Shown: piece after piece, positions 8,349 to 56,695 of the stretch | How positions within the stretch are numbered: the first letter of the stretch is position 1 | Layout: each line of letters begins with the position of its first letter | Assembly (NCBI GenBank): GCA_964610125.1 | Contig: CAZSUV010000001.1 | Location: forward strand, 45,599 to 109,598 | Direction of reading: 5' to 3' | DNA: 64,000 nucleotides | Source of the DNA: an uncultured Candidatus Saccharibacteria bacterium | GTDB lineage: Bacteria; Patescibacteriota; Dojkabacteria; SC72 | Notes under the pieces: generated by a model | Database searches by the model: none | What the model was told of the DNA's origin: nothing | What the model saw: only the letters and a program-made list of their open reading frames with translations | Made by a program: the position numbers and the translations under genes

Positions 8349-9635
8349 TTGGTGATGAACAACACAATCCGAGATCAATTTCCAATACTTAAAACCAAGA
8401 TCAATGGCAATCCAATTGTATATCTGGATAACGCGGCTACTACTCAAAAGCCTCAATTTGTACTTGATGCTATCAATGATTACTATACTAAGTACAATGC
8501 AAATATCCATAGAAGTTCCCATGCATTAGCAAAAGAAGCTACTGAGAGATGGAAGAATGCACATCAAATAGTGGCAGATTTCTTGAATGCAGATAGCTAC
8601 AAGGAAATTGTGTTTACCAGAAATACAACGGAAGGATTAAATCTTTTGGTTAATACATATGGAAAAGCAAATCTCTCTAAAGGGGATATTGTCATAATCT
8701 CTGAGATGGAACATCACAGTAATATTGTTCCATGGATGATTTTACAAAAAGAGATTGGTTTTGAAATTAGATATATTCCTGTAAATGAGAATTTTGATCT
8801 AGATATGAATTGGTTAGAGGAAGAAATTAAAAAAGAAGGAGAGAGAATTAAAATTGTTTCTGTTGTACATATTTCTAATGTCCTTGGAACATTAAATCCA
8901 GTTAAAGAAATTGCTGAATTAGCACATAGGGTAGGGGCCTTTGTGATTGTTGATGCTGCTCAAAGTGTCCAGCATGTTAAGGTAGATGTTAAGGATATTG
9001 ATTGTGATGCTTTGGTATTTTCGAGTCATAAGATATATGGACCAACAGGCAATGGTGTTCTGTATTGTAAAGAAAATATTTTAGAAAAACTTCCTCCATA
9101 TATGGGTGGTGGTGAAATGATATTGAGTGTTTCTAAGGATGGATTTGAAATGAATGATTTGCCATGGAGATTTGAAGCGGGCACTCCTGATATTGAAAGT
9201 GGAATAGTTCTTGGAGAAACTATTCAGTGGTTTAAGAAAACGGTAGACGAAATGGGTGGGTTTGAAAAACTCATTGAGCATGAAAGAAGTTTAATGAAAG
9301 AATTGTTTGATTCTTTTGATGGTATTGATTGGTTTAAGCCATTTGGAAAGACAGATTACAATAACCGATATGGTGTTTTAACTTTCAATATTAAAGGTTT
9401 TAGTTTTAAGGGTTGTAAAGACAAAGAAAAGGATAACAAGGAAGGAGATGGAATAGTTGGATATATTAGCAAAAAAGGTATGTGTGTTAGAGAAGGGTTT
9501 CATTGTGCAGAACCGTTGCATGATGCATTTCATGTTGGGCCTACCATGAGAGCAAGCTTTGGAATATACAACAATATAAAAGACGTAAAAGATTTTGCTA
9601 AATCTCTTAAAGAAGCTGTACTTTCAACCTATTAA
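8349..9635 (+). CDS. sufS: cysteine desulfurase (SufS/CsdA-like class V aminotransferase)
   Basis: HRSSHALAKEA, PLP-lysine motif SSHKIYGPTGNG, and catalytic-Cys motif REGFHCAEP (RxGxHCA). Confidence 0.75.
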   Translation: MVMNNTIRDQFPILKTKINGNPIVYLDNAATTQKPQFVLDAINDYYTKYNANIHRSSHALAKEATERWKNAHQIVADFLNADSYKEIVFTRNTTEGLNLLVNTYGKANLSKGDIVIISEMEHHSNIVPWMILQKEIGFEIRYIPVNENFDLDMNWLEEEIKKEGERIKIVSVVHISNVLGTLNPVKEIAELAHRVGAFVIVDAAQSVQHVKVDVKDIDCDALVFSSHKIYGPTGNGVLYCKENILEKLPPYMGGGEMILSVSKDGFEMNDLPWRFEAGTPDIESGIVLGETIQWFKKTVDEMGGFEKLIEHERSLMKELFDSFDGIDWFKPFGKTDYNNRYGVLTFNIKGFSFKGCKDKEKDNKEGDGIVGYISKKGMCVREGFHCAEPLHDAFHVGPTMRASFGIYNNIKDVKDFAKSLKEAVLSTY

Positions 9636-10513
9636 ATACTAAATGTTGTTCCTGTTTGTGTTGGTGTAGTTGTATCTGTAGTTGGAGCTTGATTGAAGTC
9701 AGGCATTGGAGTTTCAGCGGTGGCTGCTACTGGTGAAGGTGTTTCCATCATTGGTGTTGCCATTGGTGGTACTTCTGCTACTTGATTATTTACAAACTGT
9801 TGTAAGTCTGGCATGACAGGAGCCACTTCTGGAGCGGATGTATTGAATGATGGAAATGCAGGTGCTTCTACAGGCGCATTAAATTGTGTATCCATTGCTG
9901 GAGTAGCAGGAGCTTCAGCAACTTCAGGCATAGGTGTTGGAGTAAATGTTGGAGCTGGAGTTTCAACAGGTGTTTTAGTTGGAACTTGTTCCATAACATG
10001 GTCGGTGACAGGACCCATTGGAGATGCTGATGCTTCGCCTTGTAATATTGCTTGTAGATCAGACGACTGTGTTTCCTCAGTAACAGGAGTCTCTGAAGGA
10101 GTAGATTCAGGTTGTGTCATAGGCATTTCTTCAACAGGAGTTGGTGTCGATTCCATTGTTTCTTGAATAGTTGGTTTGGTTTCCGCAGGTGCATACAAAT
10201 TACTAGAAATATTATCCATATTTACTGGTTGTACAGAAGTTTCAACCTCAGGTGCAAATACTGTAGGAGGAGTATTCTCAACGACTGGTGTTGTAGGAGC
10301 AACTTCTGATGTCTCTTCTCCTTTTTCTTTTCTTTTACTTAGTAAGATTCCAACGATACTGATTAAAAGTATTACTGCTCCACCGATTAATATGTATGGT
10401 AAATATGTCATCAACTGTGTTTGAAGCGTAGAAGTATCTGCTGCAAATACCTGTGAAGGATATATTATCAAAGCAATCAAGGTTATTCCGGTTAAAAAGG
10501 ATTTTTTCATCAA
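9632..10513 (-). CDS. bitopic membrane protein with long Pro/Thr/Glu-rich low-complexity tail
   Basis: Signal peptide (cleavage ...VFA/AD) and a TM helix (YILIGGAVILLISIVGILL) followed by KRKEKGEE and a ~220-aa PT-rich tail. Tail motif APTTPVVENTPPT is shared with the 33687-35852 protein. Confidence 0.6.
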   Translation of the reverse strand: MMKKSFLTGITLIALIIYPSQVFAADTSTLQTQLMTYLPYILIGGAVILLISIVGILLSKRKEKGEETSEVAPTTPVVENTPPTVFAPEVETSVQPVNMDNISSNLYAPAETKPTIQETMESTPTPVEEMPMTQPESTPSETPVTEETQSSDLQAILQGEASASPMGPVTDHVMEQVPTKTPVETPAPTFTPTPMPEVAEAPATPAMDTQFNAPVEAPAFPSFNTSAPEVAPVMPDLQQFVNNQVAEVPPMATPMMETPSPVAATAETPMPDFNQAPTTDTTTPTQTGTTFSI

Positions 10514-10654
10514 TTGGACAGTTTAATTTTATACATATTAAGGCTATCATTCTAATCAATCTATTTCAAGGCTTTTTAAATATATTTTTAATACAAATAT
10601 TTGACTTGCCAGGGTTGGGAATATACACTCTAATGTAATATTTAACTGCTCAAT

Positions 10655-11848
10655 ATGGACTATATTAATTCGGGTGTACAACAAAATAGCAATGTGACAG
10701 ATGATTCCATAACGGAGGTTTTAACATTAAAAAATACCCTTGTTAATTCAAACACACCTTTAGAACTTAAAAATGAAGCTTTAACGAATATTGAAAGACT
10801 TGAAAGAATTGCTAGAAAGGGTGTGTATAGCGCAGAATTTGAAAATGTAAGTAAGTATATACAGTGGATTACACGTATTCCTTGGAATACAGTTTCTCAG
10901 GATAATTTTGATTTGAAGCATGCGAAAGAGTTAATGGATTCAACTCATTATGGTATGGATCCTGTTAAAAATGTGATTTTGGATTACATAGCATCTATGC
11001 AATTAGAGGCAACACAAGAACGAAACATGACAGCTCCTGTTGAACCACAGATTCAATCTTTAGGAAGCACTGATGGTAGGCCATCAACCAATATTCAGGC
11101 AGGTATGCCAAAATCTATAAAGGCACCAGTTTTTCTTTTTGTCGGTTTACAAGGTGTTGGAAAAACATCTATTGCACAATCAATTGCTGATGCAATGGGA
11201 AGAAAATTTGTAAGAATATCATTAGGTGCGATAGGGGATGTTAGAACATTAAGAGGGACCCCAAGATATGCACTTGATCCAGAACCGGGGCAGATTATTA
11301 AAGCATTAGTTCGTAGTGGAACAATGAACCCAGTTATACTGTTGGACGAGATTGAAAAAGCTAGCGGTAACAATGGTTTGCTGAATGATGTTATGGCAGC
11401 CTTACTAGAAATATTAGACCCGGAACAGAATCACGCATTCTTAGACCACTATATTGATTATCCAGTTGATCTGTCTAAAGCATTTTTCATCTGTACAGCA
11501 AACAATCTTGGAGGACTGTCTGCAGCACTTCTTGATCGTGTTGAGGTTATCCGGTTTACTAGTTACTCAGATGAAGAAAAGTCCGTTATTGCTAAGAAAT
11601 ACATATTGCCAAGGGTATTGAGTAGCCTGAATCTTTCGGAAGAATTCATCAAGATTGATGAAAATGCATGGCCAATGATTATACGTCCAGTTGGTTTTGA
11701 TGCTGGTATTCGACAGTTAGAGAGAAATATTGCAGGAATAGTTAGGGCCGCGGCTAGAAGAATAGTTGAGGGAACTCCAATTCCAATTATTATAACTGTT
11801 GAGAATCTCAATCAATATCTTCCACCTGATCAAGGACCTTTGAGTTAG
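10655..11848 (+). CDS. Lon-family AAA+ ATPase module lacking the S16 protease domain (truncated Lon or standalone Lon-like ATPase)
   Basis: Lon-specific motifs: YIQWITRIPW, DLKHAKELMDSTHYGMDPVKNVILDYIAS, Walker A GLQGVGKTS, Walker B NPVILLDEIEKAS, LLEILDPEQNHAF, sensor-2 AGIRQLERNIAGIVR. The ORF stops right after ...ITVENLNQYL, where the Lon protease domain would start. Confidence 0.75.
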   Translation: MDYINSGVQQNSNVTDDSITEVLTLKNTLVNSNTPLELKNEALTNIERLERIARKGVYSAEFENVSKYIQWITRIPWNTVSQDNFDLKHAKELMDSTHYGMDPVKNVILDYIASMQLEATQERNMTAPVEPQIQSLGSTDGRPSTNIQAGMPKSIKAPVFLFVGLQGVGKTSIAQSIADAMGRKFVRISLGAIGDVRTLRGTPRYALDPEPGQIIKALVRSGTMNPVILLDEIEKASGNNGLLNDVMAALLEILDPEQNHAFLDHYIDYPVDLSKAFFICTANNLGGLSAALLDRVEVIRFTSYSDEEKSVIAKKYILPRVLSSLNLSEEFIKIDENAWPMIIRPVGFDAGIRQLERNIAGIVRAAARRIVEGTPIPIIITVENLNQYLPPDQGPLS

Positions 11849-11857
11849 TATTACTTG

Positions 11858-12100
11858 CTAGTATCCCTTAAATGGGTTGGATAATCTCAATGCGTTCATA
11901 GCTATCGATACTTGTGGGTTATTGATACCCTTAATTGCACTTACCTTATACTCTGATCTTTTCTCTGCTTTTTCTAATTTTTCTAGATCTGAGGTAATTT
12001 TCTGTTGTGGTATTGACGCAGTGGATACAGCCTTCGTAACCAAGTAGTTGGACTCCGGCAACATATTCAAATTGTTCAGACTATTGTTGTTTTGGTCCAT
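11858..12100 (-). CDS. small hypothetical protein (80 aa) at the 3' end of the VirB4 operon
   Basis: ORF overlaps the VirB4 stop by 20 nt. No motif recognised. Confidence 0.3.
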   Translation of the reverse strand: MDQNNNSLNNLNMLPESNYLVTKAVSTASIPQQKITSDLEKLEKAEKRSEYKVSAIKGINNPQVSIAMNALRLSNPFKGY

Positions 12101-14507
12101 TGTTAATATAGCTAGAAACTGGTCCCTGTGGGGTTATGTGTGTCCTACCTTTTTGTATATCTTCTCTAGATTGCACCACTTGACCAGAAATTGTATTTTG
12201 TTTTAGTTCGTCTAAAAAAGTTTGCTGACTTTTCTGCTTTTGTGGATTCAAATCTAGTTCTTGTTGTCTTAATCTTTCTTCTAACTCTTTTTGGTATTGT
12301 CTTCTTTCATCCTCTATCTGTATTCTTTCTTCTTTTCGTTTATCAATTGCTTGCATAATTACCTGCTGTTGTCTGTTCATAGCGGATACGTTATTCATAG
12401 TTTGTTGGTCTGCAGGCTGTTCAAATATCTGTGCCATTTCTTCCATTGTTCGAGTATCTGTCATCCCTGCCATAGCTTTCTTCTTTTCTAAATCTCTAGG
12501 ATCTGAGGTTATGAGTTCATGCTCTGCCTGGCTTGATATTACCTGTATACCTACATGATTTGCACCGGCAAAGAAGAGGCCTTGTCCACGATCGCAACTT
12601 AGTAAGAAGTTTCTTTCTCCATCAGAGAGATTAAAGACGGTTTGTAATTTCTCAACGGAAGAAGGACTTTGTTTCATCAATATTTGCATTGAAGAGTTTG
12701 AGATTATGGCTTTTCCCATATCATTTGTAAGGAAATCTGCTACATCTTGAGTAATGGTTGAAAGCCCAAGGTAATATTTTCTCGCTCGCTTTGCGATGGA
12801 GTACATGAAGTTTGCAGAGTCCTGGCTTTGCATCATGTACCAAGCTTCATCAACGATGAGTAATCGTTTTCGTTTGTCTTTTCTAATCTTGGTCCAGATG
12901 AAATCAAGCATTAAGTACATAGCTAGAGGTTTTAGTTCTTCCTGTAAGTCTCTAATACTGAATACTGTGAATGGATTTTGTATCTCAAAATTACTTTCTT
13001 CATTGAATATTCCAGCAGCACTACCCATGATATATTTTTCCATTCTTCTGGCTAAATCATGAGCTTCATTCTCTGCCATACCTTTTAGTACTTTGTACAA
13101 ATCTTCGAGTAGAGGAGGCTTCTTAGTCTGGGTTGTAGGATCAAAAGTTATTCCTTTTTCTCGGTATGTAAGGATTAATGCTTTGTCCAATATTGATTCT
13201 TCCACATTAGTTAATCCTCCAAAAATGATCTTAAAGAATCCGTGAAGAGTTAGAAGTTTCATTCTTAATTCATCGTCTCCTTCTTCGGTTACTCCTGAGA
13301 GCTCAAATGGATTCATCTTGTTGCCTTTGTCTTGTGAGAAGGAAATGTAAGAACCATTTACAGCCTTTGAAAGTTCTTCGTATTCTCTTTCTGGATCTAT
13401 GATTATGACCTCTGTTCCAAGCATTAGACTTCTAACAGCTTCAAGCTTCACGAAGTAGCTTTTTCCTGCACCTGATTTTGCAAATACTACAGTGTTAGCA
13501 TTTTCTAATTGGAATCTATCAAAGATAACTAAACTCTTGTTATGCATATTTATTCCGTACATAATTCCCTTGTCCATTGTTAATTCTGAGGTTACAAATG
13601 GGAAGGTGGTAGCAAGGGATGTGGTATCCATATTTCGAGTGAAATACAGTTTGTCCAAGCCCAACGGTTGTGTACTTATGAATCCAGGCTCTTGCTGTAA
13701 TGTTGCTGGTTTTGCAGTTACATTCATAGCTGCAAATGTAGAGATGATGTTCTTAGAATATCTCTCGAGGAGAGCTTTGTTAGGGGCATAGATGGTTAAA
13801 TACATTCCAAAGTGGAAGTATTTCTCAGAGCCTTCTGCAATTGAATCTTGTAACTGTTGAGCATCAGATAGAGCTACTTTTAATGTAGGATCTACTACTT
13901 TTCTATCTTCCATCTGGGAGTAGAGTGTAGCTTCCATTTCACCGATTTTTCGCTTTAACTTTTCCAAAATATCCTTTGATTCAACAGGATAGTAGAAAGT
14001 GCTAATTCTAAGCGAATGCTCAAAGTTTACGATTGGTGAAAGCCAGTTAGGTCCTACAATACGTGGATAGCCTGTGACTTTGAAGGTACGGAAGAAATAG
14101 TCTCCCATTTGAAGATTGTTGAAATCTATCTCCATATCTATTGGTGCGACAATATCTTTTATGGACATATCTTTGTCCAACATGGTTATTTCATCTTCTT
14201 CGACAGGAGTACTATCTTCGGGCTCTTCTTTGACAGGTTTTCCACTAACTTTGGCAGAAACCTGATCAAGCAGTTTGAAAAGTATATTCTTTTTTTTCTT
14301 GGGTTTGATATCCTCATCTGTATCTACAGGATCATTAAATCTATCCTTTTTCTCAAGTTCGTCTTTCTTTGCAATTTCTTTCTGCAAATCTTGTTTAAAG
14401 TTTGCATATTTCTCCCCAACTGATTGAAGCTTCTCCTGTTGAGCTTGAAGCTCTTGAGTAGTTTTGTTCTCAAATGTTCGATTGTAGTTATTTATTTCCT
14501 CAGACAT
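12081..14507 (-). CDS. VirB4/TraC/ConE-like type IV secretion ATPase with Q/E-rich C-terminal extension
   Basis: N-domain motif FFRTFKVTGYPRIVGPNWL, Walker A FAKSGAGKSY, Walker B RLLIVDEAWYMM. The charged N-terminus is coiled-coil-like; the C-terminal ~170 aa are Q/E/R-rich. Confidence 0.8.
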   Translation of the reverse strand: MSEEINNYNRTFENKTTQELQAQQEKLQSVGEKYANFKQDLQKEIAKKDELEKKDRFNDPVDTDEDIKPKKKKNILFKLLDQVSAKVSGKPVKEEPEDSTPVEEDEITMLDKDMSIKDIVAPIDMEIDFNNLQMGDYFFRTFKVTGYPRIVGPNWLSPIVNFEHSLRISTFYYPVESKDILEKLKRKIGEMEATLYSQMEDRKVVDPTLKVALSDAQQLQDSIAEGSEKYFHFGMYLTIYAPNKALLERYSKNIISTFAAMNVTAKPATLQQEPGFISTQPLGLDKLYFTRNMDTTSLATTFPFVTSELTMDKGIMYGINMHNKSLVIFDRFQLENANTVVFAKSGAGKSYFVKLEAVRSLMLGTEVIIIDPEREYEELSKAVNGSYISFSQDKGNKMNPFELSGVTEEGDDELRMKLLTLHGFFKIIFGGLTNVEESILDKALILTYREKGITFDPTTQTKKPPLLEDLYKVLKGMAENEAHDLARRMEKYIMGSAAGIFNEESNFEIQNPFTVFSIRDLQEELKPLAMYLMLDFIWTKIRKDKRKRLLIVDEAWYMMQSQDSANFMYSIAKRARKYYLGLSTITQDVADFLTNDMGKAIISNSSMQILMKQSPSSVEKLQTVFNLSDGERNFLLSCDRGQGLFFAGANHVGIQVISSQAEHELITSDPRDLEKKKAMAGMTDTRTMEEMAQIFEQPADQQTMNNVSAMNRQQQVIMQAIDKRKEERIQIEDERRQYQKELEERLRQQELDLNPQKQKSQQTFLDELKQNTISGQVVQSREDIQKGRTHITPQGPVSSYINNGPKQQ

Positions 14508-15144
14508 TTTCTTCTTCTTCTGGATTATATATTGTGTAAAATTCGGAGAGTAACTCAGTATTGTTCAATTGATGCCCAACTAATCCCATACGAGAGAGTT
14601 GCTTAAGAATTTGATCTCTCTTAGGATACAGGAATATCTTAGCCTTTTCTAATAGCTGATCTATAGCCATCTGTCTGTATTTCTCTTCATCTTCATTCTT
14701 TTTCTTGTTACCGAGTAATCCAATTTCTGGTAAAGAGAGTCCTGGACTGTAAGGTATTACAACAAAGAAGTTTTTGTCCAAAACATCATTTTGTACGATT
14801 AGGTTTTGTACAAACTGGGTATATATTTCTAACTGTTTTTTCAACCCTTCACTCATCTGTCTTTCTTTTTGAGATTTGAGGTAATCAACATAGCTTGTGA
14901 TATCTATTCTTTTAGTTCTGATTAATATTTGGATGGGGAAGTTTAGTGCATTAAGTAATCCAGCAAATGCATAGATCTTGTTGTCTTGTTCATATTCTGC
15001 GAGAAGGTCGAAGTTGATAGCGGAGGTTTGGATTACCATTGCTACACTGCCACTCTTGGTTATGACTAAGTCCTCTCGTATATCTCGGACTTCTAATTCA
15101 TCTTGTGTTGAAGCTATTGCTCTAGCTCTTGTATTTTTATCCAC
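14500..15144 (-). CDS. hypothetical cytoplasmic protein translationally coupled to VirB4 (8-nt overlap)
   Basis: ORF only. Position between the VirB3-like and VirB4-like genes. Confidence 0.45.
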   Translation of the reverse strand: MDKNTRARAIASTQDELEVRDIREDLVITKSGSVAMVIQTSAINFDLLAEYEQDNKIYAFAGLLNALNFPIQILIRTKRIDITSYVDYLKSQKERQMSEGLKKQLEIYTQFVQNLIVQNDVLDKNFFVVIPYSPGLSLPEIGLLGNKKKNEDEEKYRQMAIDQLLEKAKIFLYPKRDQILKQLSRMGLVGHQLNNTELLSEFYTIYNPEEEENV

Positions 15145-15145
15145 G

Positions 15146-15946
15146 TTATATTGTTTTAATCTTAATAGGTAGCTTGTTACTTTCGTCTGTGAGTAGTAAA
15201 TCTACCTTAGGGAACTTGTATTGTGGGTGTATGAATTCTAAGGTATATCTTCCTTTGGTCCACATTCTGTTGGTTAAGAAATATCCACTTGCTCCGGTTC
15301 GGTTAGCATACAATATTTTTCCATCTTCCCCCTTCATATATGTTATGACATTTGGTACGGATACCATATCTCCAGTATACAACCATATGTTAATATTCCC
15401 AGGTAATTTTTCTAAGTTTTGGATTGTAAATTCATAGTTCTTTCGGTTTTCTTCTGAGATGATTAATCTGTCTTGTACGATTGGAGTTGGTATGGCCTGA
15501 GGAATATTCTCTACAGGAATCTCTTCATTTGTTGTTTGCAAAAGGTTGCCACCGATAATGGGGCTTGTTTTTTCCTTGAAGCTTTTTTGTACTAACTTGC
15601 CATCTGCAGATGGTTTTAATTCTGGCTTTGTTCTTGCTTGTTGCATTTCACTGTTCATCCATACTCTTTGTGTTGGTGCGGTTATTGCTCCTATATAGTT
15701 CTTTATGAACACATCTGCGTCTTGCTCATTGATAGGGACTAAGCCTAAAAAGATCCCAGCACCAGAAGTGAGGATACATATTGGGATTCCAACTAATCCT
15801 GGGATCGTTTTAGCTACAACGAGATATATCATTAACCCGCCGAATCCCAACCCGATAGCAAGATAGGCGAATTCTTTCAGAGTAAACTTTGAAAAGAGTT
15901 TGAACTCTACATCTAATATATTTTGCGGTATCGGATGTTGTCTCAT
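15146..15946 (-). CDS. VirB3/ConD-like membrane protein (two N-terminal TM helices plus ~190-aa C-terminal domain)
   Basis: TM hairpin YLAIGLGFGGLMIYLVV...GIPICILTSGAGIFLGLV. Sits immediately upstream of the VirB4-like operon genes; stop and next start are 1 nt apart. Confidence 0.45.
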   Translation of the reverse strand: MRQHPIPQNILDVEFKLFSKFTLKEFAYLAIGLGFGGLMIYLVVAKTIPGLVGIPICILTSGAGIFLGLVPINEQDADVFIKNYIGAITAPTQRVWMNSEMQQARTKPELKPSADGKLVQKSFKEKTSPIIGGNLLQTTNEEIPVENIPQAIPTPIVQDRLIISEENRKNYEFTIQNLEKLPGNINIWLYTGDMVSVPNVITYMKGEDGKILYANRTGASGYFLTNRMWTKGRYTLEFIHPQYKFPKVDLLLTDESNKLPIKIKTI

Positions 15947-16023: not shown

Positions 16024-16794
16024 ATGTATATACCTAAGAAAGTGGTTATGGATCTTACAAAATTTAGAGCATTAATGGGTTGTAATCTAACAGAGGAGAA
16101 AGCTAGGTATATTTGGGGTAAGAATTCTGTTAAGAATTCAGATATTTCTTTTGGAAAAGAACAATCAAATGAGTATGTAAATTCAAAGGTTGAGCTTGCT
16201 CAGAGGAATGTAAAATATTTACAGGTTGGGAACTTGGTTAAGTTCATTGGTGTTTCTGGTTCTGTAGCTGCGGGTTTTGCTAAGGAAGAGGATGATATTG
16301 ATGTTTTTGTGGTGGTTAGAAATGATACGGCATGGATATACAGGGCATTGTTGGTATTTAAGAATATTTTTCATCACAGGATTAGGACTAAGTGGGATGG
16401 GGAGAGGGTGAAGGATAAATTTTGTTTAAATTTGATATGTGAGGAGAGGGATGTGGTGTTTGAGGATGATATGTTTAACTTTCATGAATTAATGTATTTG
16501 GTTCCAATATTTAATGAAAGATATTTGAACTTTGTATATTCTCAGAATGTTTGGTTAAGAGAAATATATGGGGTTAAGGGGGAGTTGATGGTGAATAGGG
16601 TGAGTGTGAGTAAGAAAAAGAATTTGTTTTTTAAAGTTTTAAATTTCAAAGCTTTTTGTTTGCAATTAGTGTTTATGATTTTGTCTAAACATAGTCCGGA
16701 GATTCCTAGATTAAAAGAAAATTTTAAGAGAGGAAGGATTGAATTTTTTCCTAGGGATTACAAGGAGAAGAGGATGGAAGATTACTTAAAGTAA
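16024..16794 (+). CDS. polymerase-beta-superfamily nucleotidyltransferase
   Basis: GVSGSVAAGFAKEEDDIDVFVVV matches the hG[GS]x9-13[DE]h[DE]h NTase motif. The coding strand is extremely C-poor. Confidence 0.6.
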   Translation: MYIPKKVVMDLTKFRALMGCNLTEEKARYIWGKNSVKNSDISFGKEQSNEYVNSKVELAQRNVKYLQVGNLVKFIGVSGSVAAGFAKEEDDIDVFVVVRNDTAWIYRALLVFKNIFHHRIRTKWDGERVKDKFCLNLICEERDVVFEDDMFNFHELMYLVPIFNERYLNFVYSQNVWLREIYGVKGELMVNRVSVSKKKNLFFKVLNFKAFCLQLVFMILSKHSPEIPRLKENFKRGRIEFFPRDYKEKRMEDYLK

Positions 16795-16814: not shown

Positions 16815-17603
16815 ATGGAACCTAGATCAGAAATTTTTTCTGTAGATAATAATGATTTACACTATTACGTTCGTGGAAATGGAAAATTTCCAGTTATAGT
16901 TATGCACGGCCTTGGCTCAAGTGGCCGTTCATTTTACAAAGGAGTAGATATTAGTCTTCCTGATACTACAACGTATTATATTGATCTTCCTGGGCATGGG
17001 GATAGTTTTAATTTGGTACTTAAGCAGCCAGAAAAGTGGGTAAGTTTTATTACGGATTTTTGTAAGAGTTTGAATTCTAAGAAAATAGCTATTGTAGGTT
17101 TTTCACTTGGAGGAGAAATTGGATTGCTGGTTGCTGAAAGATTAGTACAAGAAAACTATGATTGTTCCTTGTTTGTATGGAGTACTTCCCATAAATTAAA
17201 TCACAAAGATTCAGTGCCATTAATTGCTGAATTGGGTATGTCGCTTTGGAAATTGCTAAATGTGATTTTAAGAAGTGCCTTTGTAAGAAAATTACTGTCA
17301 TTCTTTGGTATTAAGTTAGCGGGGCAGGATTGGAATGATGTAGTCAGTACAAATCCATATGCATTTCGTTTTGCAAAGAAACTGTTTAAAAGAGACATGA
17401 CTGATATTGATAAAAGGATAAGATTTAAATATATATATGGAGATCATGATGCATTTGTTGATTACAAGAAAGTTGTTCCTGAGATTGAGAAAGTTCGTCC
17501 TGAGTCTAGTATATATATTTCTGGATGTCAGCATTTTGGTAATGAGGTAGGGTGGAAGAATGCTGTTGAGTATTTGAAAGAAGAAATAAGTTTAATCAAT
17601 TAA
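16815..17603 (+). CDS. alpha/beta-fold hydrolase
   Basis: VMHGLGSS oxyanion region and nucleophile elbow GFSLGG; 262 aa. Same C-depleted composition as the upstream NTase. Confidence 0.7.
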   Translation: MEPRSEIFSVDNNDLHYYVRGNGKFPVIVMHGLGSSGRSFYKGVDISLPDTTTYYIDLPGHGDSFNLVLKQPEKWVSFITDFCKSLNSKKIAIVGFSLGGEIGLLVAERLVQENYDCSLFVWSTSHKLNHKDSVPLIAELGMSLWKLLNVILRSAFVRKLLSFFGIKLAGQDWNDVVSTNPYAFRFAKKLFKRDMTDIDKRIRFKYIYGDHDAFVDYKKVVPEIEKVRPESSIYISGCQHFGNEVGWKNAVEYLKEEISLIN

Positions 17604-17609
17604 ATATCT

Positions 17610-17936
17610 ATGATCGATTATATGAATAACTATATGGAATATATAAAAACCATATTGAAGAAAGAAAATATAAATGAATCTATTAAAAAAGATCTCATAG
17701 AACATATACAATTTATGCAACATGAAAGACTAATACATCTATTAGTTACTATGTTATTTGCATCATTATTAATGTTTGGATTTATTATTATGCTTATATA
17801 TTTCTCTTGGATATTAGTAGTATTTACAGCATTAATATTTATTGTAGAAATATTCTATATATTCCATTACTACAAACTAGAGAATGGAGTACAGAAGATG
17901 TATAGGTTGTATGATGAATTAACTAAGAAAAAATAA
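17610..17936 (+). CDS. small membrane protein (2 TM)
   Basis: Hydrophobic segments LLVTMLFASLLMFGFIIMLIYF and WILVVFTALIFIVEIFYIF. Confidence 0.4.
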   Translation: MIDYMNNYMEYIKTILKKENINESIKKDLIEHIQFMQHERLIHLLVTMLFASLLMFGFIIMLIYFSWILVVFTALIFIVEIFYIFHYYKLENGVQKMYRLYDELTKKK

Positions 17937-17938
17937 AA

Positions 17939-18988
17939 ATGCCAAACGATTTACCAGGAGAAAACAACGATCAATCTGATGTAAGAGATAGTAGATTCTC
18001 TTCATTATCCAATGCCGCTTTAGGCTATGCAATTGGTCTTGAATATGAAGGCTCGATGAATATAGATTATGAATCTTTCTTAATAGATAAAGTTGTGTCT
18101 TTGGGAGATCTGGACGAAGAAACGGTACAGAATCTTAAACTGTCTTCCAATACCACATTCACGGATCCCTCTGAAAATGTATATTCAGAAAAATTAGCTC
18201 ACTATGTTGAAGCTTTTTGGAGTAATTTAGATGAAAAAGAAAAGATTATTTTAGATGAAGACTTGAAAGAACCTGACAATTTAAATTTAAGAATTGAAGA
18301 GTTCAAAGAATCAGAATTCTCCGAGCAGCTTTTTGAAAGTGAAGAAGGAATGAATAAATTTGTAGGAGTAATTGGGAATAATCTAAAAAAAGCTTTGCTA
18401 GTATCTTTGTTAACTGGGAAGGAATGTAAATACGAGATATACAAGGACAACACAGGAAGATATCTTTGTGATTCTTTTCCTAGAATAGGAAATTACGAAG
18501 CAGTTTCACCAAATATAGATAGAGAATTACACAGTGTTTGTATGATTCATACACATCCAACATTGACGGATTATGACTCTGTAGGAAAGAAATTCCTTAT
18601 GGTGGATGGCTTCTCTTATAATCCAGCATCAGAGGGGGACTTAAGGGCAGATGATAGAAGTGATTGGGTTGGTTTTCTTGCATCCCCTGGGCACAGAGCA
18701 ATTGTGGAGGGTGTAATCTCTAGTAATGAACATTTAACTTTATTAAAGTTTAATCCATTGGATGTGGATTCAATTGTTACGAGGGCTAATTATAGAGGAA
18801 TAAGTATTTATCCTGAAGATATAGAATTTTTAAATCAGGAAGGAGTTTATACTAGCATTGTTGCAAGGAGTATCCTTAGGAAGATAACAAATAATAGTTA
18901 TTCCGAAGACATAGACAAAAGGTTATCAAGTTTTTTTGGTTATAATCTATATAAAGGAAATATTGAGAAGGTTGAAAGAGCTATATAG
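17939..18988 (+). CDS. hypothetical protein with possible divergent JAB/MPN-like metal-binding motif
   Basis: CMIHTHPTLTDYDS followed by ...NPASEGDL (HxH...SxxD), but the spacing is non-canonical. Confidence 0.35.
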   Translation: MPNDLPGENNDQSDVRDSRFSSLSNAALGYAIGLEYEGSMNIDYESFLIDKVVSLGDLDEETVQNLKLSSNTTFTDPSENVYSEKLAHYVEAFWSNLDEKEKIILDEDLKEPDNLNLRIEEFKESEFSEQLFESEEGMNKFVGVIGNNLKKALLVSLLTGKECKYEIYKDNTGRYLCDSFPRIGNYEAVSPNIDRELHSVCMIHTHPTLTDYDSVGKKFLMVDGFSYNPASEGDLRADDRSDWVGFLASPGHRAIVEGVISSNEHLTLLKFNPLDVDSIVTRANYRGISIYPEDIEFLNQEGVYTSIVARSILRKITNNSYSEDIDKRLSSFFGYNLYKGNIEKVERAI

Positions 18989-18991
18989 AGT

Positions 18992-19363
18992 TCAATCTGA
19001 AATACAAACTTTAAAATCCTTGAATTCAACGATCTCTAGTTTCTTTGGTTCTTCTTCCCATTCACATATTTCAAATGGAATATTGTTATACATTCCTTGA
19101 AACTCTAAATATTTATCTTCCCATTTATGTATATCAGATATTTTGTATTCATTTAACAAACTAAATGCCTTCGTTATATCTTCTTTTGAAACAAATAAAT
19201 CAATGTCATAGGGATATACATCTTCACCAAGTATGTAATGTAAGCCAGAGGCAGATAGGCAGTAGAGGATATTATTCTTACTAAGTTCTTGTGTTAGATA
19301 TCTAAGAGCTTTCTCCCATTTCCCAATATTTTGTTTGTTTATTTCGTAATATTCTTTATCCAT
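18992..19363 (-). CDS. small nucleotidyltransferase-fold protein
   Basis: LSASGLHYILGEDVYPYDIDLFV resembles the minimal NTase hGS...DxD motif. Overlaps the IMPase gene by 25 nt. Confidence 0.35.
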   Translation of the reverse strand: MDKEYYEINKQNIGKWEKALRYLTQELSKNNILYCLSASGLHYILGEDVYPYDIDLFVSKEDITKAFSLLNEYKISDIHKWEDKYLEFQGMYNNIPFEICEWEEEPKKLEIVEFKDFKVCISD

Positions 19364-20130
19364 GGTAACTTCTTAATTCTTTCTATACTATCAGAAGCTA
19401 TAAATCCATTATCAAGCTCTGTCTTTGAATAATCAATATCTTTGCCATAATAATCAGTCATCACACCACCAAGAGTAGAAAGTATTGCATCCCCAGCACA
19501 TACATCCCATGGTCCCCAAGCTCCAAAGTTGCTATTTATTTGTAAATTAATACCACCTTCAATAATATGTATTCTTGGATCCTTAAACTCTTCCCCTAAA
19601 TCATTCCCATGTACTAGTGTATATTCAGGATCATCATTAAATAGCTCTTTGAAAACATTCTCCCAATTCTCCGAAGGAGTGAATAGAAGATTTTGTTTTT
19701 TAGTAGAGGACATTACTAAATTAGATTCCCCATTTGATGTGATTACTCTTGGGATTTCATTCTCACCACCGATATACAGTTTGTCATATAACGGATGATA
19801 TATTAACCCTAAGATTGGTTTGTTTTTTCTTGTTAATCCAACAAGTATATTGAAGTAATCACTTCCTCTTAAATATGATCCTGTCCCATTTAATGGGTCT
19901 ATGTACCATGTATATTCTTTACATTCTTTTTCCAATTCTTCAGACATGATCCCATATGTTGGATACTTTTCTTTCAGATAGCTTTGTAAGATATCATTTG
20001 CTTCCTTATCTACATTAGTTACCTTGCTACCATCTTCTTTTGTTTCAATTACAAGGTCAGAAGAATTTCTGTATTTAAGAAGAATATCGCCACATTTCTT
20101 AATTACTGTTATTAGTTCTAGAATATCCAT
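19339..20130 (-). CDS. inositol monophosphatase family protein
   Basis: WYIDPLNGTGSY (DPxDGT motif) and WDVCAGDAIL (WDxAAG). Confidence 0.75.
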   Translation of the reverse strand: MDILELITVIKKCGDILLKYRNSSDLVIETKEDGSKVTNVDKEANDILQSYLKEKYPTYGIMSEELEKECKEYTWYIDPLNGTGSYLRGSDYFNILVGLTRKNKPILGLIYHPLYDKLYIGGENEIPRVITSNGESNLVMSSTKKQNLLFTPSENWENVFKELFNDDPEYTLVHGNDLGEEFKDPRIHIIEGGINLQINSNFGAWGPWDVCAGDAILSTLGGVMTDYYGKDIDYSKTELDNGFIASDSIERIKKLPWIKNITK

Positions 20131-20178
20131 AACTAAAGTATATCATTTAAGATTTAGATAGAAGTCAAATCAGTTGTT

Positions 20179-21039
20179 CTAGATATAGAAATAACTTACT
20201 CCAATTACTCCAACCATAATCAATCCTAACCCAATAATTTCAATCAAACGAGGTTTTTCTTTTAACCATAAAATAGCAAGTATAATCATAATCCCAGGAT
20301 ATGCAGCAGTAAGTGGGGAAGCAATGGAGGCATAAGTATTCTCAAAGGCTAACCAAAGACCAACTAATCCAAGCACATTTAAGAGTGATCCCATAATTGC
20401 ATATTTATATTTCCCAATATTCTTAGCAAATTTAAAAATATGTTGAGGAGTTTCTTTCTCAAGCCTTAGATATATCAAACTAATAGGTATTTGCATTAAA
20501 GCAAGTGAGAAAAGAAATGCTGCTGCAGAAGTCTTATCTATTACGCCCTTTGATATAGTATCTGATAATCCTACAGCTAAAGCTCCGGCAATTGCCCAGA
20601 GAATATACTTTTTACTTTTCAATTCTTCTTTTGTAATTTTCTTTGGTAGAGATGCAATCGTTGTTCCAATAATTGTTATAAAAATAAATATCCAATGTAA
20701 TAGTTGTAATCGTTCTCCAAGTAATATCACTGCGAAGAGAATTGTATATACAGGATATGAAGCAAAGATTGTTCCGGTAATACTCAGTTCTCCCTTTGAG
20801 AGAATATAGAAGATAAATGCTTCTGAGAGAATTGCACTGATTAAAGCATATGGCAAAACTTGAAGTATATCGGAAAAATCAAAGCCAATAATTAATGAGA
20901 AAGGAATCCAGATTAATAACCCAAATATCATATCAAAGAAAAATCCGACAGAAGGAGGGAATTCTTTGAAGCTTTTTTTAAGACTTGTGAAGCCTAATGC
21001 AAAAAAGACTGAAGATAGAAGTGCATATACTATTCCCAT
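20179..21039 (-). CDS. EamA/DMT-family transporter
   Basis: ~10 predicted TM helices in a two-half repeat arrangement; 286 aa. Confidence 0.55.
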   Translation of the reverse strand: MGIVYALLSSVFFALGFTSLKKSFKEFPPSVGFFFDMIFGLLIWIPFSLIIGFDFSDILQVLPYALISAILSEAFIFYILSKGELSITGTIFASYPVYTILFAVILLGERLQLLHWIFIFITIIGTTIASLPKKITKEELKSKKYILWAIAGALAVGLSDTISKGVIDKTSAAAFLFSLALMQIPISLIYLRLEKETPQHIFKFAKNIGKYKYAIMGSLLNVLGLVGLWLAFENTYASIASPLTAAYPGIMIILAILWLKEKPRLIEIIGLGLIMVGVIGVSYFYI

Positions 21040-50247: not shown

Positions 50248-53200
50248 ATGGGTATTAAAACACAAAAAGTATTAAGACTAATATCAAAGATAATATTGAT
50301 ATTGGTGGGTGTAGGATTAGTTGGTATTGCTGGCTACTATGTATACAAATCCATAGCGTTTAAACCTCAAAATGTTGTAGTAACCAATATCACAGATGGC
50401 TCTGCTACAGTGACTTGGACAACAACATCCCCTATGAAAGGTATTGTATATGTTAAGAAGGATAAAGGATTACTTCCTGGTCCTCTAGGGATTGTAGGAT
50501 CTAGTATGGCATACGATGACAGAGATGTGAGTGATGCTCAGAAGACTTGTGTTGATGTATTTAACAAAAAAGCTTCCGAAACTAAAGATTCAACATTTAG
50601 TGTAAGTGGTAGTAACTTTGATTGTGAGAATGTTAAGGTTACTAAAATGGGATCTTACTACACCCACAGTGTAACAGTAACTGATTTGGATGAGAATTCT
50701 ACATACAACTTTGTAGTAGGTGATGGTATATGGAGTTTTAAAGAGAGTGTTTCAATAGTTAAAACATTTGGTGTATTAGAAACCATTGGAGAACCTAAAC
50801 CAATATTTGGGAAAGTCGTTGGTGATGATGAAACTGTTTCTGAAGATGGTTTAGTATATATTACTTTCAATGATGGTAGCGAAGGCAAGGACAGTATTGT
50901 TTACAGTAGTACAACTAATGATGATGGAGGATGGTATGTGGATGCATCTAGTGTTAGAGATTCCAATGGGAATGTTATTTCACTTGAGTTAACCAATGAT
51001 TCCTTTAAAGCCAAAGGGGTGTACAAGAACTATGGTAGTAGTGATGAACAGATCTGGGTTTTAGGATACTTCAATGGCGCATATCCTGATATAACGGTAA
51101 AGAAAAGTATTCCTACTAGTATGGGGATATTCGGTAGGTTAGTAATGGGCGTGTATGCATCATGTACTTATGAGGATGTTAATGCTGCTGCCCATGGCGG
51201 GCCAGCGCTTGATTCTTCTAAGTGTGATCTCACAAATCTTACAGATGCAGAAACAAAAAAATTGGGTTATGGAAATGTAATAAGATTATTAAATGTGCAA
51301 AATGGTGGAGATGCTAACGCTACAATACAAAAAGTATTTGGTAGCTCTGATCCTATAACCATAGCGGGAAACATCAATGCTGTGTATGGAACTACTCTCG
51401 ATGGTACGTCTACGAAAGTAACGATAGATAATGCTTCGAGTCGTTACGCAGATGTTCACGGAGAAAGTACTAGTGCAAATGGAGATGTAAAAAAGGAAGA
51501 TTGTATTGGTGGAATACCAGGAGGAGGTAGAGCGGCTGGTTGTTATAAATCTTCTTCATATTGTAGTGATACGCTTACATGCCATAAGAATCCGGATGGA
51601 ATTGTTGTTTCTTGCGAGGAAATTGCTGGTAAGTGTGGTTATGTTGCCCCCCCTAACGCCCCAGTTTGTTCTCCAATTGTTTGTACTCCAACGGGTCAAG
51701 CATCTTCCATTATGTGTGTTGATGGTGTAGTTAAGTCATACTCTAATAGTAGTTGTAGCAGCTCAGGAACTGGTAGTGAGCAGAATAGTATTGGACTAAA
51801 GTGTAGAAGTCGTAACTTTAATGATTGCGGAACAGGGAAAATATGTGTTGATAAAAAATGTACTTCTGCAAGAGATGCTACCCAAACGAGTTGTGGAGGT
51901 TATGCTATAGATCATTGCGAAAAATCTGGAGAGAATCAATATAAAATTTGTACATCTGCTGGTTGGGCTTTTGGAACTGGTACATGTGATGGTGTTGGGG
52001 GTAGTAATACAACTGCAGGAAGTTTCTCTTGCGATGAAAACAGAAAGTGTGCAGTAACCTTTGGAGATCAAACAGTAACAGTAACATCTACTCAAATGAA
52101 GAAGATATTGAATGAATCATATACTTCTGGGGACGGTGTCATCGTGGCTTCCAATATAGATATCAATAAATTCCTTAAATTTGGTGGAACCAATGCCGCG
52201 AATATTGTATCAGACAATCTGGCATTGAAAGAAGTTGCAATTAAAGAGTTAAGCATTTGGGAAGAAGAAGTTACTAAATATACTGCAGGTACAGTGCCAG
52301 ATATAACGGATAAAATTAAGGCGCTTTGTGATGCACTTGGAGGAACAACTAATAACTCATATAATCCGACAAATTGTACTTTACCAGAAACTCAGAATCT
52401 TAATCCATTTAAACCTTCTAGAGTATATGCTGCGGATTCATCTTCTGATTCATACACCTTATATATGCCAGAGTATGGGATGTATAGTTTTCAATTAGGG
52501 AATTATACTGTTTCAACTGAAGTCTCGGATGGTAACACCATATATCTTTTCTACATTGAGACTAATGGCAAGGAAGGTTTCCAGATACCGATAGACCCGG
52601 ATAATCCAACTTCTGAGGAAGATATAATTTTGAATTCTGCTTCGTATCAAATAACCTATAAACAAGAGTCTACAGCCCAGCAGTATGAGATTAAAAAAGG
52701 AATTAATATTATTTCCTTTGACTTTGTACCAGTATCAATAGATTCCGGTGCCTATACAGCTCAAGATATTATAATTCAAGCATCAGACAATGGAGTAGAA
52801 GTCCAATACATCTCAACCTTTGAAGGAGGTAGGTGGAATAGTGGATATTCATGCTCAAGTGGAACATGTACAGGGAACAATTTCATCGTAGTTCCTGGTA
52901 AAGGATATCTAGTATATGCAACCGAGGATGGAACAGTAACAATCCCAGGATATAATCTAACCTCATCAGTACCCATAGCATTCTCAGCTGGATGGAACCT
53001 AGTAGGAGTACACGGATATACTACAGCATATACAGCACGATCATTTATTGACTCCATAAATAGTATCAATGGTCTTACCGCAAACAATGTGTCATGGTGG
53101 CCTACATCCAAGAGTAAATACGAAGGAGTAGAGGTAGACAATGGAACACAATATGGATTAGATTTCTCAATAAGTCCAAATAATGGATATTTTGTAAGAA

Positions 53201-53292
53201 TATCTAAATTTGCGCCAACAGATACCAAGTGTAAATCTTTGATCTGGAATACCGGTGGAAGCCTAAATGGATCTTGTGGAAATACAAAATAA
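50248..53292 (+). CDS. giant signal-anchored surface protein (1014 aa) with N-terminal FN3-like domain and Cys-rich central region
   Basis: TM ILILVGVGLVGIAGYYVY; VVVTNITDGSATVTWTTTSPMKGIVYV (FN3-like); ~30 Cys in the aa 400-600 region. Confidence 0.6.
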   Translation: MGIKTQKVLRLISKIILILVGVGLVGIAGYYVYKSIAFKPQNVVVTNITDGSATVTWTTTSPMKGIVYVKKDKGLLPGPLGIVGSSMAYDDRDVSDAQKTCVDVFNKKASETKDSTFSVSGSNFDCENVKVTKMGSYYTHSVTVTDLDENSTYNFVVGDGIWSFKESVSIVKTFGVLETIGEPKPIFGKVVGDDETVSEDGLVYITFNDGSEGKDSIVYSSTTNDDGGWYVDASSVRDSNGNVISLELTNDSFKAKGVYKNYGSSDEQIWVLGYFNGAYPDITVKKSIPTSMGIFGRLVMGVYASCTYEDVNAAAHGGPALDSSKCDLTNLTDAETKKLGYGNVIRLLNVQNGGDANATIQKVFGSSDPITIAGNINAVYGTTLDGTSTKVTIDNASSRYADVHGESTSANGDVKKEDCIGGIPGGGRAAGCYKSSSYCSDTLTCHKNPDGIVVSCEEIAGKCGYVAPPNAPVCSPIVCTPTGQASSIMCVDGVVKSYSNSSCSSSGTGSEQNSIGLKCRSRNFNDCGTGKICVDKKCTSARDATQTSCGGYAIDHCEKSGENQYKICTSAGWAFGTGTCDGVGGSNTTAGSFSCDENRKCAVTFGDQTVTVTSTQMKKILNESYTSGDGVIVASNIDINKFLKFGGTNAANIVSDNLALKEVAIKELSIWEEEVTKYTAGTVPDITDKIKALCDALGGTTNNSYNPTNCTLPETQNLNPFKPSRVYAADSSSDSYTLYMPEYGMYSFQLGNYTVSTEVSDGNTIYLFYIETNGKEGFQIPIDPDNPTSEEDIILNSASYQITYKQESTAQQYEIKKGINIISFDFVPVSIDSGAYTAQDIIIQASDNGVEVQYISTFEGGRWNSGYSCSSGTCTGNNFIVVPGKGYLVYATEDGTVTIPGYNLTSSVPIAFSAGWNLVGVHGYTTAYTARSFIDSINSINGLTANNVSWWPTSKSKYEGVEVDNGTQYGLDFSISPNNGYFVRISKFAPTDTKCKSLIWNTGGSLNGSCGNTK

Positions 53293-53316
53293 CTAAATTA
53301 AATATATTTAAATAAC

Positions 53317-53649
53317 ATGGATACAATACCACCAGTATTTTGGATGATAATTGTTAGCGTCTTGACCATAATGGTATGTCTCATACTCTACTATGTAGCT
53401 ATGCTCATAAAAGAGACTAGAACGACTGTAGCAGACGCGAGAGATACAATGAAACAGGCAACCAAGATGCTTCAACAATTAGAACTCATAGTCAATGATG
53501 TCCAAAGCAGTGTATCTACAATTAGGGGAACAGTAGAAGAGGTAAACCAATCAATCTTGGCTCCAATTAGAAAAATAGCGGGTGGGATATTAACAGCATC
53601 TGTATTCCTTGGAGGTCTAAAGAAAAAAGAATCAAGAACTGAAGAATAA
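53317..53649 (+). CDS. small membrane protein with coiled-coil segment
   Basis: N-terminal TM VFWMIIVSVLTIMVCLILYYVAMLI and C-terminal hydrophobic GGILTASVFLGGL. Confidence 0.4.
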   Translation: MDTIPPVFWMIIVSVLTIMVCLILYYVAMLIKETRTTVADARDTMKQATKMLQQLELIVNDVQSSVSTIRGTVEEVNQSILAPIRKIAGGILTASVFLGGLKKKESRTEE

Positions 53650-53688
53650 CGTTGTATTTCTCCGTATTACTAGCTATTATAGTTATTA

Positions 53689-55314: not shown

Positions 55315-55361
55315 TAGTTTGCTAGAAACCATTATAATATCTGATATAATCAGGGACTTGC

Positions 55362-56669: not shown

Positions 56670-56695
56670 TAATTTAAATTAATTAAATATTTAAT

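Follow-up and report, generated by a model that had tools for sequence, protein, structure and literature searches.

The stretch of DNA analysed here, 64 kb of contig CAZSUV010000001.1 (the window), comes from a Dojkabacteria genome and contains, at positions 10655..11848 of the + strand, a gene for a LonA-type AAA+ ATPase that has neither a protease domain nor an N domain. Pfam, NCBIfam and sequence alignment support this identification. The gene starts with ATG and encodes 397 amino acids (aa) followed by a stop codon. Positions given below are those of the 64-kb window, residues are numbered in the 397-aa protein, and E. coli Lon (EcLon, locus L091) serves as the residue reference. The start codon is backed by an invariant Met1 and by a conserved MDY.N N-terminus in alignment A1. 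A first-pass annotation of the sequence had reported an open reading frame (ORF) with Lon ATPase motifs at exactly these positions, and all of the motifs it quoted are found in the translation: YIQWITRIPW, HYGMDPVKNVILDYIAS, LLDEIEKAS, LEILDPEQNH and AGIRQLERNIAGIV.

The protein corresponds to the central part of LonA. Pfam recognizes an AAA domain (aa 161-302) and a Lon lid (PF22667, aa 326-374); neither Lon_C (PF05362) nor LON_substr_bdg (PF02190) was matched in the same scan. The NCBIfam lon model TIGR00763 is covered only at its positions 249-567 of 795, with a score of 321.5 bits compared to a cut-off of 608.05, and the score for NF008053 is 240 against a cut-off of 891. LonA chains from the PDB align to it (E = 1e-69) over aa 20-117 and again over aa 151-389. 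The helical region at aa 18-117 (10706..11005, + strand), aligned to B. subtilis and E. coli Lon, is homologous to the C-terminal part of the LonA HI(CC) region; the naming of the HI(CC) and NB regions follows PMC6722904. It is made up of a three-helix bundle and the first NB helix (EcLon ~240-341) and holds the YIQWITRIPW and HYGMDPVKNVILDYIAS motifs. The lid, or H domain, comprises aa 304-389 (11564..11821, + strand) and carries the sensor-2 Arg353 in the sequence AGIRQLER. An AlphaFold model, calculated with an alignment of 18 sequences and used for domain layout and disorder only, has an N-terminal helical bundle, a disordered insert, an α/β domain and a lid, with predicted helices at 12-30, 36-54, 60-74, 87-97 and 102-124. 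All of the top 50 Foldseek matches to this model are LonA structures.

Both ends of the protein are well defined with respect to LonA. The N-terminus lies near the equivalent of EcLon 240, and the ~240-aa N-terminal substrate-binding domain of Lon is missing, as is the long coiled-coil part of HI(CC). The first-pass annotation was right about the absence of the protease domain and overlooked that of the N-terminal domain. The protein ends 44 aa after the sensor-2 Arg353. Its last residue is 8 residues past the EcLon-584 equivalent and within the linker leading to the P domain. The stop codon (11846-11848) is separated by 9 nt from that of a convergent 80-aa ORF, beyond which is the VirB4 gene. 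Therefore there is no room downstream for a protease domain, as had been claimed.

The missing domains were not found elsewhere in the DNA covered. A tblastn search of the window with the domains of three full-length Lons detected neither an S16 P domain nor a Lon N domain at E<=1e-3. The first-pass annotation had considered a frameshifted or adjacent S16 domain at 11849-12080 or nearby; tblastn and six-frame inspection of 11849-12100 revealed no S16 remnant in any frame, even at E<=50, and the Lon N domains likewise matched nothing there at that threshold. There is no Lon_C among the 48 window ORFs scanned with Pfam, which are housekeeping genes such as folD, glyA, dcd, recF, lepA, alaS, dnaJ, nusA, infB and pnp. 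The flanks of 46 Dojkabacteria loci of the family (~+/-10 kb) contain no S16 or Lon N domain, and neither does the DNA within ~+/-5 kb of ~60 other short-form loci from a metagenome survey. In the same survey, 19 of 19 ordinary Lon loci scored for both domains, which validates the detection method. One apparent "short Lon" of 416 aa (P0185) was set aside as irrelevant: it comes from a eukaryotic Lon gene that is split by introns and has its N and P domains encoded by neighbouring exons.

The ATPase site is complete. The seven ATPase residues equivalent to EcLon K362, T363, D423, E424, N473, R484 and R542 are kept in 251 of 251 short forms, with a single Thr to Ser replacement. The Walker A motif, G164-LQGVGK170-T171 (11144..11167, + strand), is invariant in alignment A1, its Lys and Thr being the K362 and T363 equivalents in which that one replacement occurs. 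Walker B, ILLD231-E232-IEK (11336..11359, + strand), has its Asp and Glu in all 251 proteins. The Walker A Lys and the Walker B Asp are 60 residues apart, the spacing typical of LonA (PMC9569914). The segment from sensor-1 Asn283 (CTANN) to the arginine finger Arg295 (LLDRVE), at 11501..11539 on the + strand, contains the EcLon N473 and R484 equivalents, and Arg353 is that of R542; all three are universal in the alignment. This pattern implies that ATP binding, ATP hydrolysis and an inter-subunit arginine finger are under selection, as would be expected of an oligomeric, active ATPase.

The pore loops, by contrast with those of canonical LonA, are remodelled. Pore loop 1, R200-GTPRYALDPEPG-Q213 (11252..11293, + strand), takes the place of the canonical RGHRRTYIGSMPGK, which reads GHRRTY398-I-G-S-M402-PGK. 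In the subfamily to which the window protein belongs (the window subfamily) the loop has the form GTPRY-[A/S]-[I/L/V]-D-x-E-PGQ. Its tyrosine, Tyr205, is one position before the canonical Tyr398 column, and this displaced Tyr is found in 112 of 120 members. The Tyr398 column itself is occupied by Ala in the 397-aa protein and by Ser or Ala across the subfamily, and the canonical Y398-I399 pair of an aromatic and a hydrophobic residue is absent from its position in the 397-aa protein. Gly400 is replaced by Asp in the window subfamily. Met402 is replaced by Glu in 246 of the 251 short forms, so that 'EPG' instead of 'MPG' is a signature of the family. The Microgenomates subfamily has G-Q-S-K-T-S-P-E-S-E-PG in this loop, with an aromatic residue in only 3 of 121 proteins; among the basal Dojkabacteria, 3 of 10 have one. 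Pore loop 2 (ASGNNGLLNDVMA), which follows Walker B, is 2 residues longer than in LonA and is conserved within the Dojkabacteria subfamilies.

Two further elements distinguish the protein. A low-complexity insertion at aa 118-152 (11006..11110, + strand), between helix α12 and strand β1 of the NB domain, is predicted to be disordered. Its residues 118-150 have no match in the PDB alignments, in agreement with the ~30-aa insertion before Walker A noticed earlier, and the model confidence (pLDDT) is <50 at 125-157. The α12-β1 segment is 39 residues long in the 397-aa protein and 9 in EcLon. Its length is hypervariable, being 14-17 aa in Microgenomates, 21-52 in the window subfamily and up to 145 in basal Dojkabacteria. 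The other element is the C-terminal tail PPDQGPLS, aa 390-397, which runs directly into the stop codon (11822..11848, + strand) and in which DQGPLS is invariant or near-invariant in alignment A1. The tails of basal Dojkabacteria (...PEDFGVYS, ...PEGIGTLS) are related. In a MAFFT alignment the tail coincides with the first strand of the P domain, 'VGxVTG', which suggests, without proving it, that the tail is a remnant of that domain. No IGF-like or HbYX-like docking motif is evident on reading alignment A1.

The short form is not confined to the window. Its architecture is shared by >240 homologues, all of which end 0-9 residues past the EcLon-584 equivalent. The best 120 database homologues, at 63-100% identity, are without exception 378-412 aa long and consist of AAA and Lon_lid without Lon_C; the named members among them belong to Candidatus Dojkabacteria/WS6. 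In a 251-protein alignment, 119 of the 120 proteins of the window subfamily end exactly 8 residues past the EcLon-584 equivalent. A scan of GTDB with one genome per species found 37 loci with family members at 45-82% identity, and the ordinary Lon proteins of other phyla at <=40%. Orthologous loci in relatives carry the same short form, and the ORF ends at the same place in every family locus. A search of representative sequences returned a handful of short 50%-identity clusters followed by ordinary Lon of ~800 aa at 40-45% identity. When the 43%-identical short protein P0279 was used as the seed, 120 of 120 matches were 340-506 aa long (median 348 aa) and without Lon_C, the named ones coming from Roizmanbacteria, Woesebacteria, the Microgenomates group, 'Parcubacteria' and other Patescibacteria. 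The metagenome survey supplied ~60 further short-form loci.

The family is thus large, spans Dojkabacteria, Microgenomates and other Patescibacteria, and is apparently undescribed. A literature search found no description of a natural protease-less Lon, of Lon in the Candidate Phyla Radiation (CPR), Patescibacteria or Dojkabacteria, or of Lon near a CPR type IV secretion system (T4SS). Neither Pfam nor NCBIfam has a dedicated model for the short forms. Some databases label them 'ATP-dependent Lon protease' or 'Lon protease 2', and NCBI calls them 'AAA family ATPase'. Many metagenome-assembled genomes (MAGs) in which the gene and its synteny are of the Dojkabacteria type, at 60-73% identity, bear the title 'uncultured Candidatus Saccharibacteria bacterium' (L012-L047). 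Because of this identity and of the synteny, which is identical to that of Dojkabacteria-labelled genomes, such titles are probably generic or wrong. The representative search also ranks high a set of very long proteins (P0123-P0141 and P0148-P0163, ~900-3900 aa) with 4-6 matched stretches and two or three tandem Lon-type AAA+ modules, which could be eukaryotic proteins, fused gene calls or true tandem Lon ATPases.

The gene is under strong purifying selection. The ratio of nonsynonymous to synonymous substitution rates (dN/dS) relative to relatives is 0.07-0.14, with dS near saturation. In a neighbour-joining tree of the AAA+ modules all short forms are split from all sampled full-length LonA proteins with a bootstrap of 100/100. 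The split would fit one ancient event in which the two flanking domains were lost. The Dojkabacteria MAG Zod_Metabat.200 (GCA_016929645.1) has two protease-less paralogues (L045 and L092), of 409 aa and 548 aa. The longer protein, P0146, was considered as a candidate transitional form whose P domain had decayed, and was rejected, its extra 200 aa being a disordered, low-complexity C-terminal tail rich in Ser and Asn. The P0146 gene adjoins a Peptidase_C39-like/Big_5 gene and histidine-kinase genes.

Downstream of the gene for the Lon core (hereafter the Lon-core gene), on the opposite strand, is a core set of T4SS genes of the chromosomal Patescibacteria type (12081..15946, - strand), identified with Pfam and syntenic in ~30 species. 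It consists of VirB4 (12081-14507, - strand; 808 aa, with TraG P-loop and AAA_10 matches), a TraC-like/TrsD protein (14500-15144, - strand) and a PrgI/VirB3-like protein (15146-15946, - strand), the last two likewise assigned by Pfam. The last gene of the convergent VirB4 string is the conserved 80-aa ORF (11858..12100, - strand). It has no Pfam match and shares 20 nt with the stop region of VirB4. Homologues with 38-69% identity are found in the same position at ~25 loci, and are among the called genes of L001-L006. In L001 this ORF and the convergent Lon-core gene have an overlap of 4 nt, and no terminator-like site is present between the Lon-core gene and the 80-aa ORF. Divergent from prgI is a gene for a nucleotidyltransferase-fold (NTase) protein (16024..16794, + strand; Pfam NTP_transf_2), which is found in the same position at most loci with 35-68% identity.

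The first-pass annotation had offered, as one of two explanations, that this T4SS/NTase block is a mobile insertion that truncated lon. In all of the ~30 species-level loci at >=58% identity (58-82%) the Lon-core gene is convergent to the 80-aa ORF, VirB4, the TraC-like gene and PrgI, usually followed by the divergent NTase gene. The upstream neighbours of the gene vary among these loci, and extra DNA is present between it and the T4SS string in L009 (an M23 peptidase gene), L015 and L035. Members at <=56% identity (L007, L037-L045) are still short and have no VirB4 within 10 kb. Among ~70 loci of the Microgenomates type, VirB4 is matched in one only, L149, which is ~40% identical to both subfamilies. 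No tRNAs and only chance-level repeats flank the block, and the GC content at 12-16 kb is unremarkable. Since the same short gene and synteny recur in ~30 species and the short form also exists where no VirB4 is nearby, the block is not a mobile insertion. It is an ancestral chromosomal neighbour, inherited as synteny in one Dojkabacteria lineage, and not the cause of the truncation. The T4SS of Patescibacteria has been described as chromosomal, phylogenetically distinct and widespread, with no Lon-like neighbour mentioned and with most clusters lacking a nearby coupling protein (PMC12102498). The link between the Lon-core gene and the convergent VirB4 operon is thus real at the level of the clade and does not extend to the whole family.

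The Lon-core protein has no Pfam homology to VirB4/TraG/HerA-FtsK or VirB11 P-loop proteins, its only matches being AAA and Lon_lid. PADLOC defence models gave generic partial AAA matches only (DolB, 1.9e-11, aa 154-332), and the neighbouring genes gave none. Upstream of the gene is a sigma-70-like promoter candidate, TTGACT-17 nt-TACACT (10601..10629, + strand), 26 nt 5' of the ATG. It agrees with the consensus at 9 of 12 positions and is weak evidence, as the region has fewer such matches than shuffled sequence. Directly upstream and divergent is a gene (9632-10513, - strand) for a 293-aa low-complexity protein that is rich in Pro, Thr, Glu and Ala. The protein has an N-terminal hydrophobic segment and no Pfam match, and is weakly conserved (31-68% identity) in some relatives.

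Farther downstream, six genes occupy ~4.2 kb between the NTase gene and recF/lepA (16815-21039), where the GC content is lower (0.29-0.33). They encode an alpha/beta hydrolase, a 108-aa membrane protein, a 349-aa protein without a Pfam match, a 123-aa ORF, an inositol monophosphatase-family protein and an EamA transporter. The relatives L001 and L004 are without this stretch at that position, and only one or two short ORFs with no annotation separate their VirB4 block from recF. The stretch has the look of a lineage-specific insertion. Another region of the window, 50248-63092 (+ strand), contains large co-directional ORFs of 1014, 541, 435, 497, 895, 325 and 390 aa. They mostly have no Pfam match, the exceptions being purple-acid-phosphatase-N-like/fn3 and SH3_3 domains, and may constitute a cluster of cell-surface or secreted proteins.

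Across the family, the Lon-core genes are found in four types of context, all on the core chromosome and two of them rich in chaperone genes. The first, in the window clade (~30 species), is the arrangement convergent to the T4SS core. In the second, that of basal Dojkabacteria, yidC-jag-rplY are upstream and an ftsA-like gene, groES-groEL and clpB are downstream, so that groES-groEL-clpB and yidC are within ~5 kb of the Lon-core gene. In the third, the gene is divergent from groES-groEL across 100-350 bp; this is the case at 13 of 13 loci of the Roizmanbacteria-type subfamily, including a complete genome. The fourth, seen at 32 loci of a third short-form subfamily (e.g. L107, 1361-10610), places the gene co-directionally in the series rpsO-pnp-[Lon-core]-UDG-like-rnj (RNase J-like)-ftsK-like. 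The neighbours in this last context, which come from the metagenome loci L105-L155, were identified from sequence appearance and clustering only; it is an RNA-turnover neighbourhood and not a chaperone one. No protease gene recurs as a neighbour in any of the four contexts.

CIRCE-like inverted repeats with 2-3 mismatches to TTAGCACTC-N9-GAGTGCTAA are present directly upstream of groES in L039 (7721-7747) and L042 (10573-10599). At these two loci the sites precede groES only, and none is found before the Lon-core gene. The repeats suggest HrcA-type heat-shock control in the CPR genomes of basal Dojkabacteria.

The shared end point, the low dN/dS, the conserved ATPase residues and the 100/100 split in the tree establish the Lon-core protein as genuine rather than truncated. 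It is a functional, vertically inherited LonA derivative that consists only of the Lon 'core motor', namely the three-helix bundle, the AAA+ α/β domain and the lid, and there is very little doubt that it is a conserved, protease-less Lon-core ATPase in its own right. The second explanation of the first-pass annotation, a genuine protease-less Lon-type unfoldase or chaperone, is thereby strongly supported in its first part. The unfoldase part is uncertain, because the aromatic residue of pore loop 1 is displaced or absent.

Lon is the textbook case of a motor and a peptidase fused in one AAA+ protease. The AAA+ module of the Lon-core protein is 33-45% identical to those of E. coli Lon, B. subtilis LonA, M. 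taiwanensis LonA and human LONP1. It shares with them the LonA-specific three-helix bundle and lid and has identical sensor 1, arginine finger and sensor 2 residues. Unlike these proteins, it lacks the S16 Ser-Lys peptidase domain and the N-terminal substrate-binding domain, has a displaced or lost pore-loop-1 Tyr together with the Gly400 to Asp and Met402 to Glu replacements, contains the disordered insertion before β1 and a pore loop 2 longer by 2 residues, and reaches only about half of the TIGR00763 cut-off.

Two laboratory fragments of LonA are close to it. The proteolytic fragment EcLon(235-584) (PDB 6N2I) has nearly the same boundaries, with the three-helix bundle, NB and H domains; it binds ADP, and its crystals show an open hexameric spiral (PMC6722904). 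The 'AAAP' construct of M. taiwanensis LonA (MtaLonA residues 242-793, with residues 1-241 removed) begins where the Lon-core protein does and has an ATPase activity like that of the wild type (PMC8087443). However, these are engineered or proteolytic products with canonical pore loops, whereas the Lon-core protein is natural and selected, and has remodelled loops, an insertion and a conserved tail.

According to reviews of the Lon subfamilies, an ATPase and a protease domain are present in every Lon (PMC9569914). LonB, LonBA and LonC demonstrate that a Lon can lose or exchange its N-terminal region and alter its pore loops and yet keep its scaffold (PMC9569914, PMC3391209). LonC is reported to keep the protease and to be without ATP-powered unfolding activity (PMC3391209); the Lon-core family is the converse case. 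ClpB, and ClpX without ClpP, are ATP-driven ring ATPases with no attached peptidase, which the Lon-core protein would resemble if it forms the ring predicted for it, and the Lon HI(CC) region is related to the H1/M region of ClpB (PMC6722904). Unlike ClpB and ClpX, the Lon-core protein would form a single AAA+ ring, has no M domain and is without the conserved pore-loop tyrosine that those machines need. Its matches to Clp models are weak, partial and limited to the P-loop.

By analogy with EcLon(235-584) and AAAP, and given the trans arginine finger and the catalytic residues, the Lon-core protein would assemble into a Lon-like hexameric ring or spiral and hydrolyse ATP. It would not degrade proteins itself. 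Instead, it would act as an ATP-dependent remodeller of proteins, and possibly of complexes, or as a chaperone-type factor in the proteostasis of reduced genomes. Its grip on substrates would be non-canonical, with the tyrosine displaced or lost, an acidic D-x-EPGQ loop and a longer pore loop 2. The disordered insertion and the invariant DQGPLS tail are candidate elements for binding partners or clients. The chances that the protein works as such a non-degradative remodeller or chaperone are about even, and the explanation as a whole, in which the firm identity and the less firm mechanism are blended, is moderately probable.

Several points weigh against this explanation. Hexamer formation, ATPase activity and chaperone activity are all predictions. 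The tyrosine retained in pore loop 1 by most of the window subfamily may mean that threading activity persists. A separately encoded S16 domain, or another partner protease, may be present elsewhere in the genome, the S16 scans having covered the window and the flanks of the loci. The spacers between groES and the Lon-core gene contain no shared CIRCE/HrcA operator. The genomic context is not uniform, being T4SS in one type, groESL (with clpB) in two and rpsO-pnp-rnj-ftsK in another, and therefore only some members of the family support a link to proteostasis. The AlphaFold model is moderate in quality (mean pLDDT 66). Finally, the AAA+ tree is a midpoint-rooted neighbour-joining tree from which one short outlier, P0173, was excluded.

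The best of the alternatives, although an unlikely one, is that the Lon-core protein is a canonical threading unfoldase, which either hands its substrates to an unrelated protease (FtsH, ClpP or HtrA) or unfolds and disaggregates them in the manner of ClpB or stand-alone ClpX. The intact ATPase set would suit this role, as would the Tyr followed by an aliphatic residue in pore loop 1 of the window subfamily (Y205-A-L). FtsH is present in the related genome L005, and clpB and groESL are nearby in basal lineages. However, the Tyr is out of the canonical register, and it is absent from 118 of 121 proteins of the sister subfamily and from 7 of 10 basal Dojkabacteria, with the remainder of the loop conserved. 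Nor is there an evident IGF-like or HbYX-like motif or a conserved protease neighbour.

A split Lon is less probable still. In such an arrangement the S16 domain, and perhaps the N domain, would be encoded elsewhere and would assemble with the Lon-core ATPase into a two-component protease, for which the invariant C-terminal tail could serve as a docking element. Among AAA+ proteases two-component forms are common, ClpXP and HslUV being examples. However, the partners of split genes usually stay adjacent, and no S16 or N domain is encoded in the window or in the flanks of the Dojkabacteria and metagenome loci described above. The four contexts have no recurrent protease neighbour, and the pore-loop-1 aromatic residue required for feeding a protease chamber has been lost in most of the family.

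It is about equally improbable that the Lon-core protein was recruited to the VirB4/TrsD/PrgI machine as an accessory ATPase, for example for unfolding or loading of substrates, in place of a missing VirB11 or coupling protein. The tight convergent adjacency has been kept in ~30 species while the upstream neighbours changed, and a nearby coupling protein is absent from most Patescibacteria T4SS clusters (PMC12102498). Yet the convergent orientation precludes co-transcription, other DNA has entered between the two in L009, L015 and L035, and the linkage does not exist in L007, in L037-L045 or in nearly all of the Microgenomates-type loci, L149 being the sole one of ~70 with a VirB4 match. Furthermore, a study of T4SS neighbourhoods reports no Lon-like neighbour (PMC12102498).

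For the possibilities that a mobile T4SS/NTase element truncated lon, that the gene is a pseudogene in decay, or that an error of sequencing or assembly occurred at 11.85 kb, only the superficial look of a Lon ATPase ending where the P domain should start beside T4SS-like genes can be cited. They are refuted by the same end point in hundreds of independent assemblies, a dN/dS of ~0.07, the invariant tail, the lack of an S16 remnant in any frame and of tRNAs or flanking repeats, and the syntenic, chromosomal nature of the T4SS block (PMC12102498).

The preferred explanation, a protease-less Lon-core ATPase that remodels proteins without degrading them, can be carried further, tentatively and with the odds against its being correct in full. 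In this extended form, the family would be the first natural 'protease-free Lon', an ancient CPR-wide lineage of non-degradative and probably non-threading chaperones or assembly factors that depend on ATP, have acidic pore loops, a disordered insert for binding clients or partners and a C-terminal docking tail, and operate alongside GroESL and ClpB. In the Dojkabacteria clade of the window it might possibly also serve the essential chromosomal T4SS.

The current classes LonA, LonB, LonC and LonBA all assume a protease domain, and the Lon-core family contradicts this assumption. The Lon core has a selectable function that is independent of proteolysis, and the family is a natural system for its study. 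If the protein is a protease-free chaperone, it would provide a natural variant in which functions are separated, relevant to the long debate on a chaperone role of Lon that is independent of proteolysis. Reconstructions of CPR metabolism and proteostasis that count the short forms as Lon proteases would be wrong. The finding thus raises the question of which enzymes carry out regulated and quality-control proteolysis in the minimal, episymbiotic cells of the CPR.

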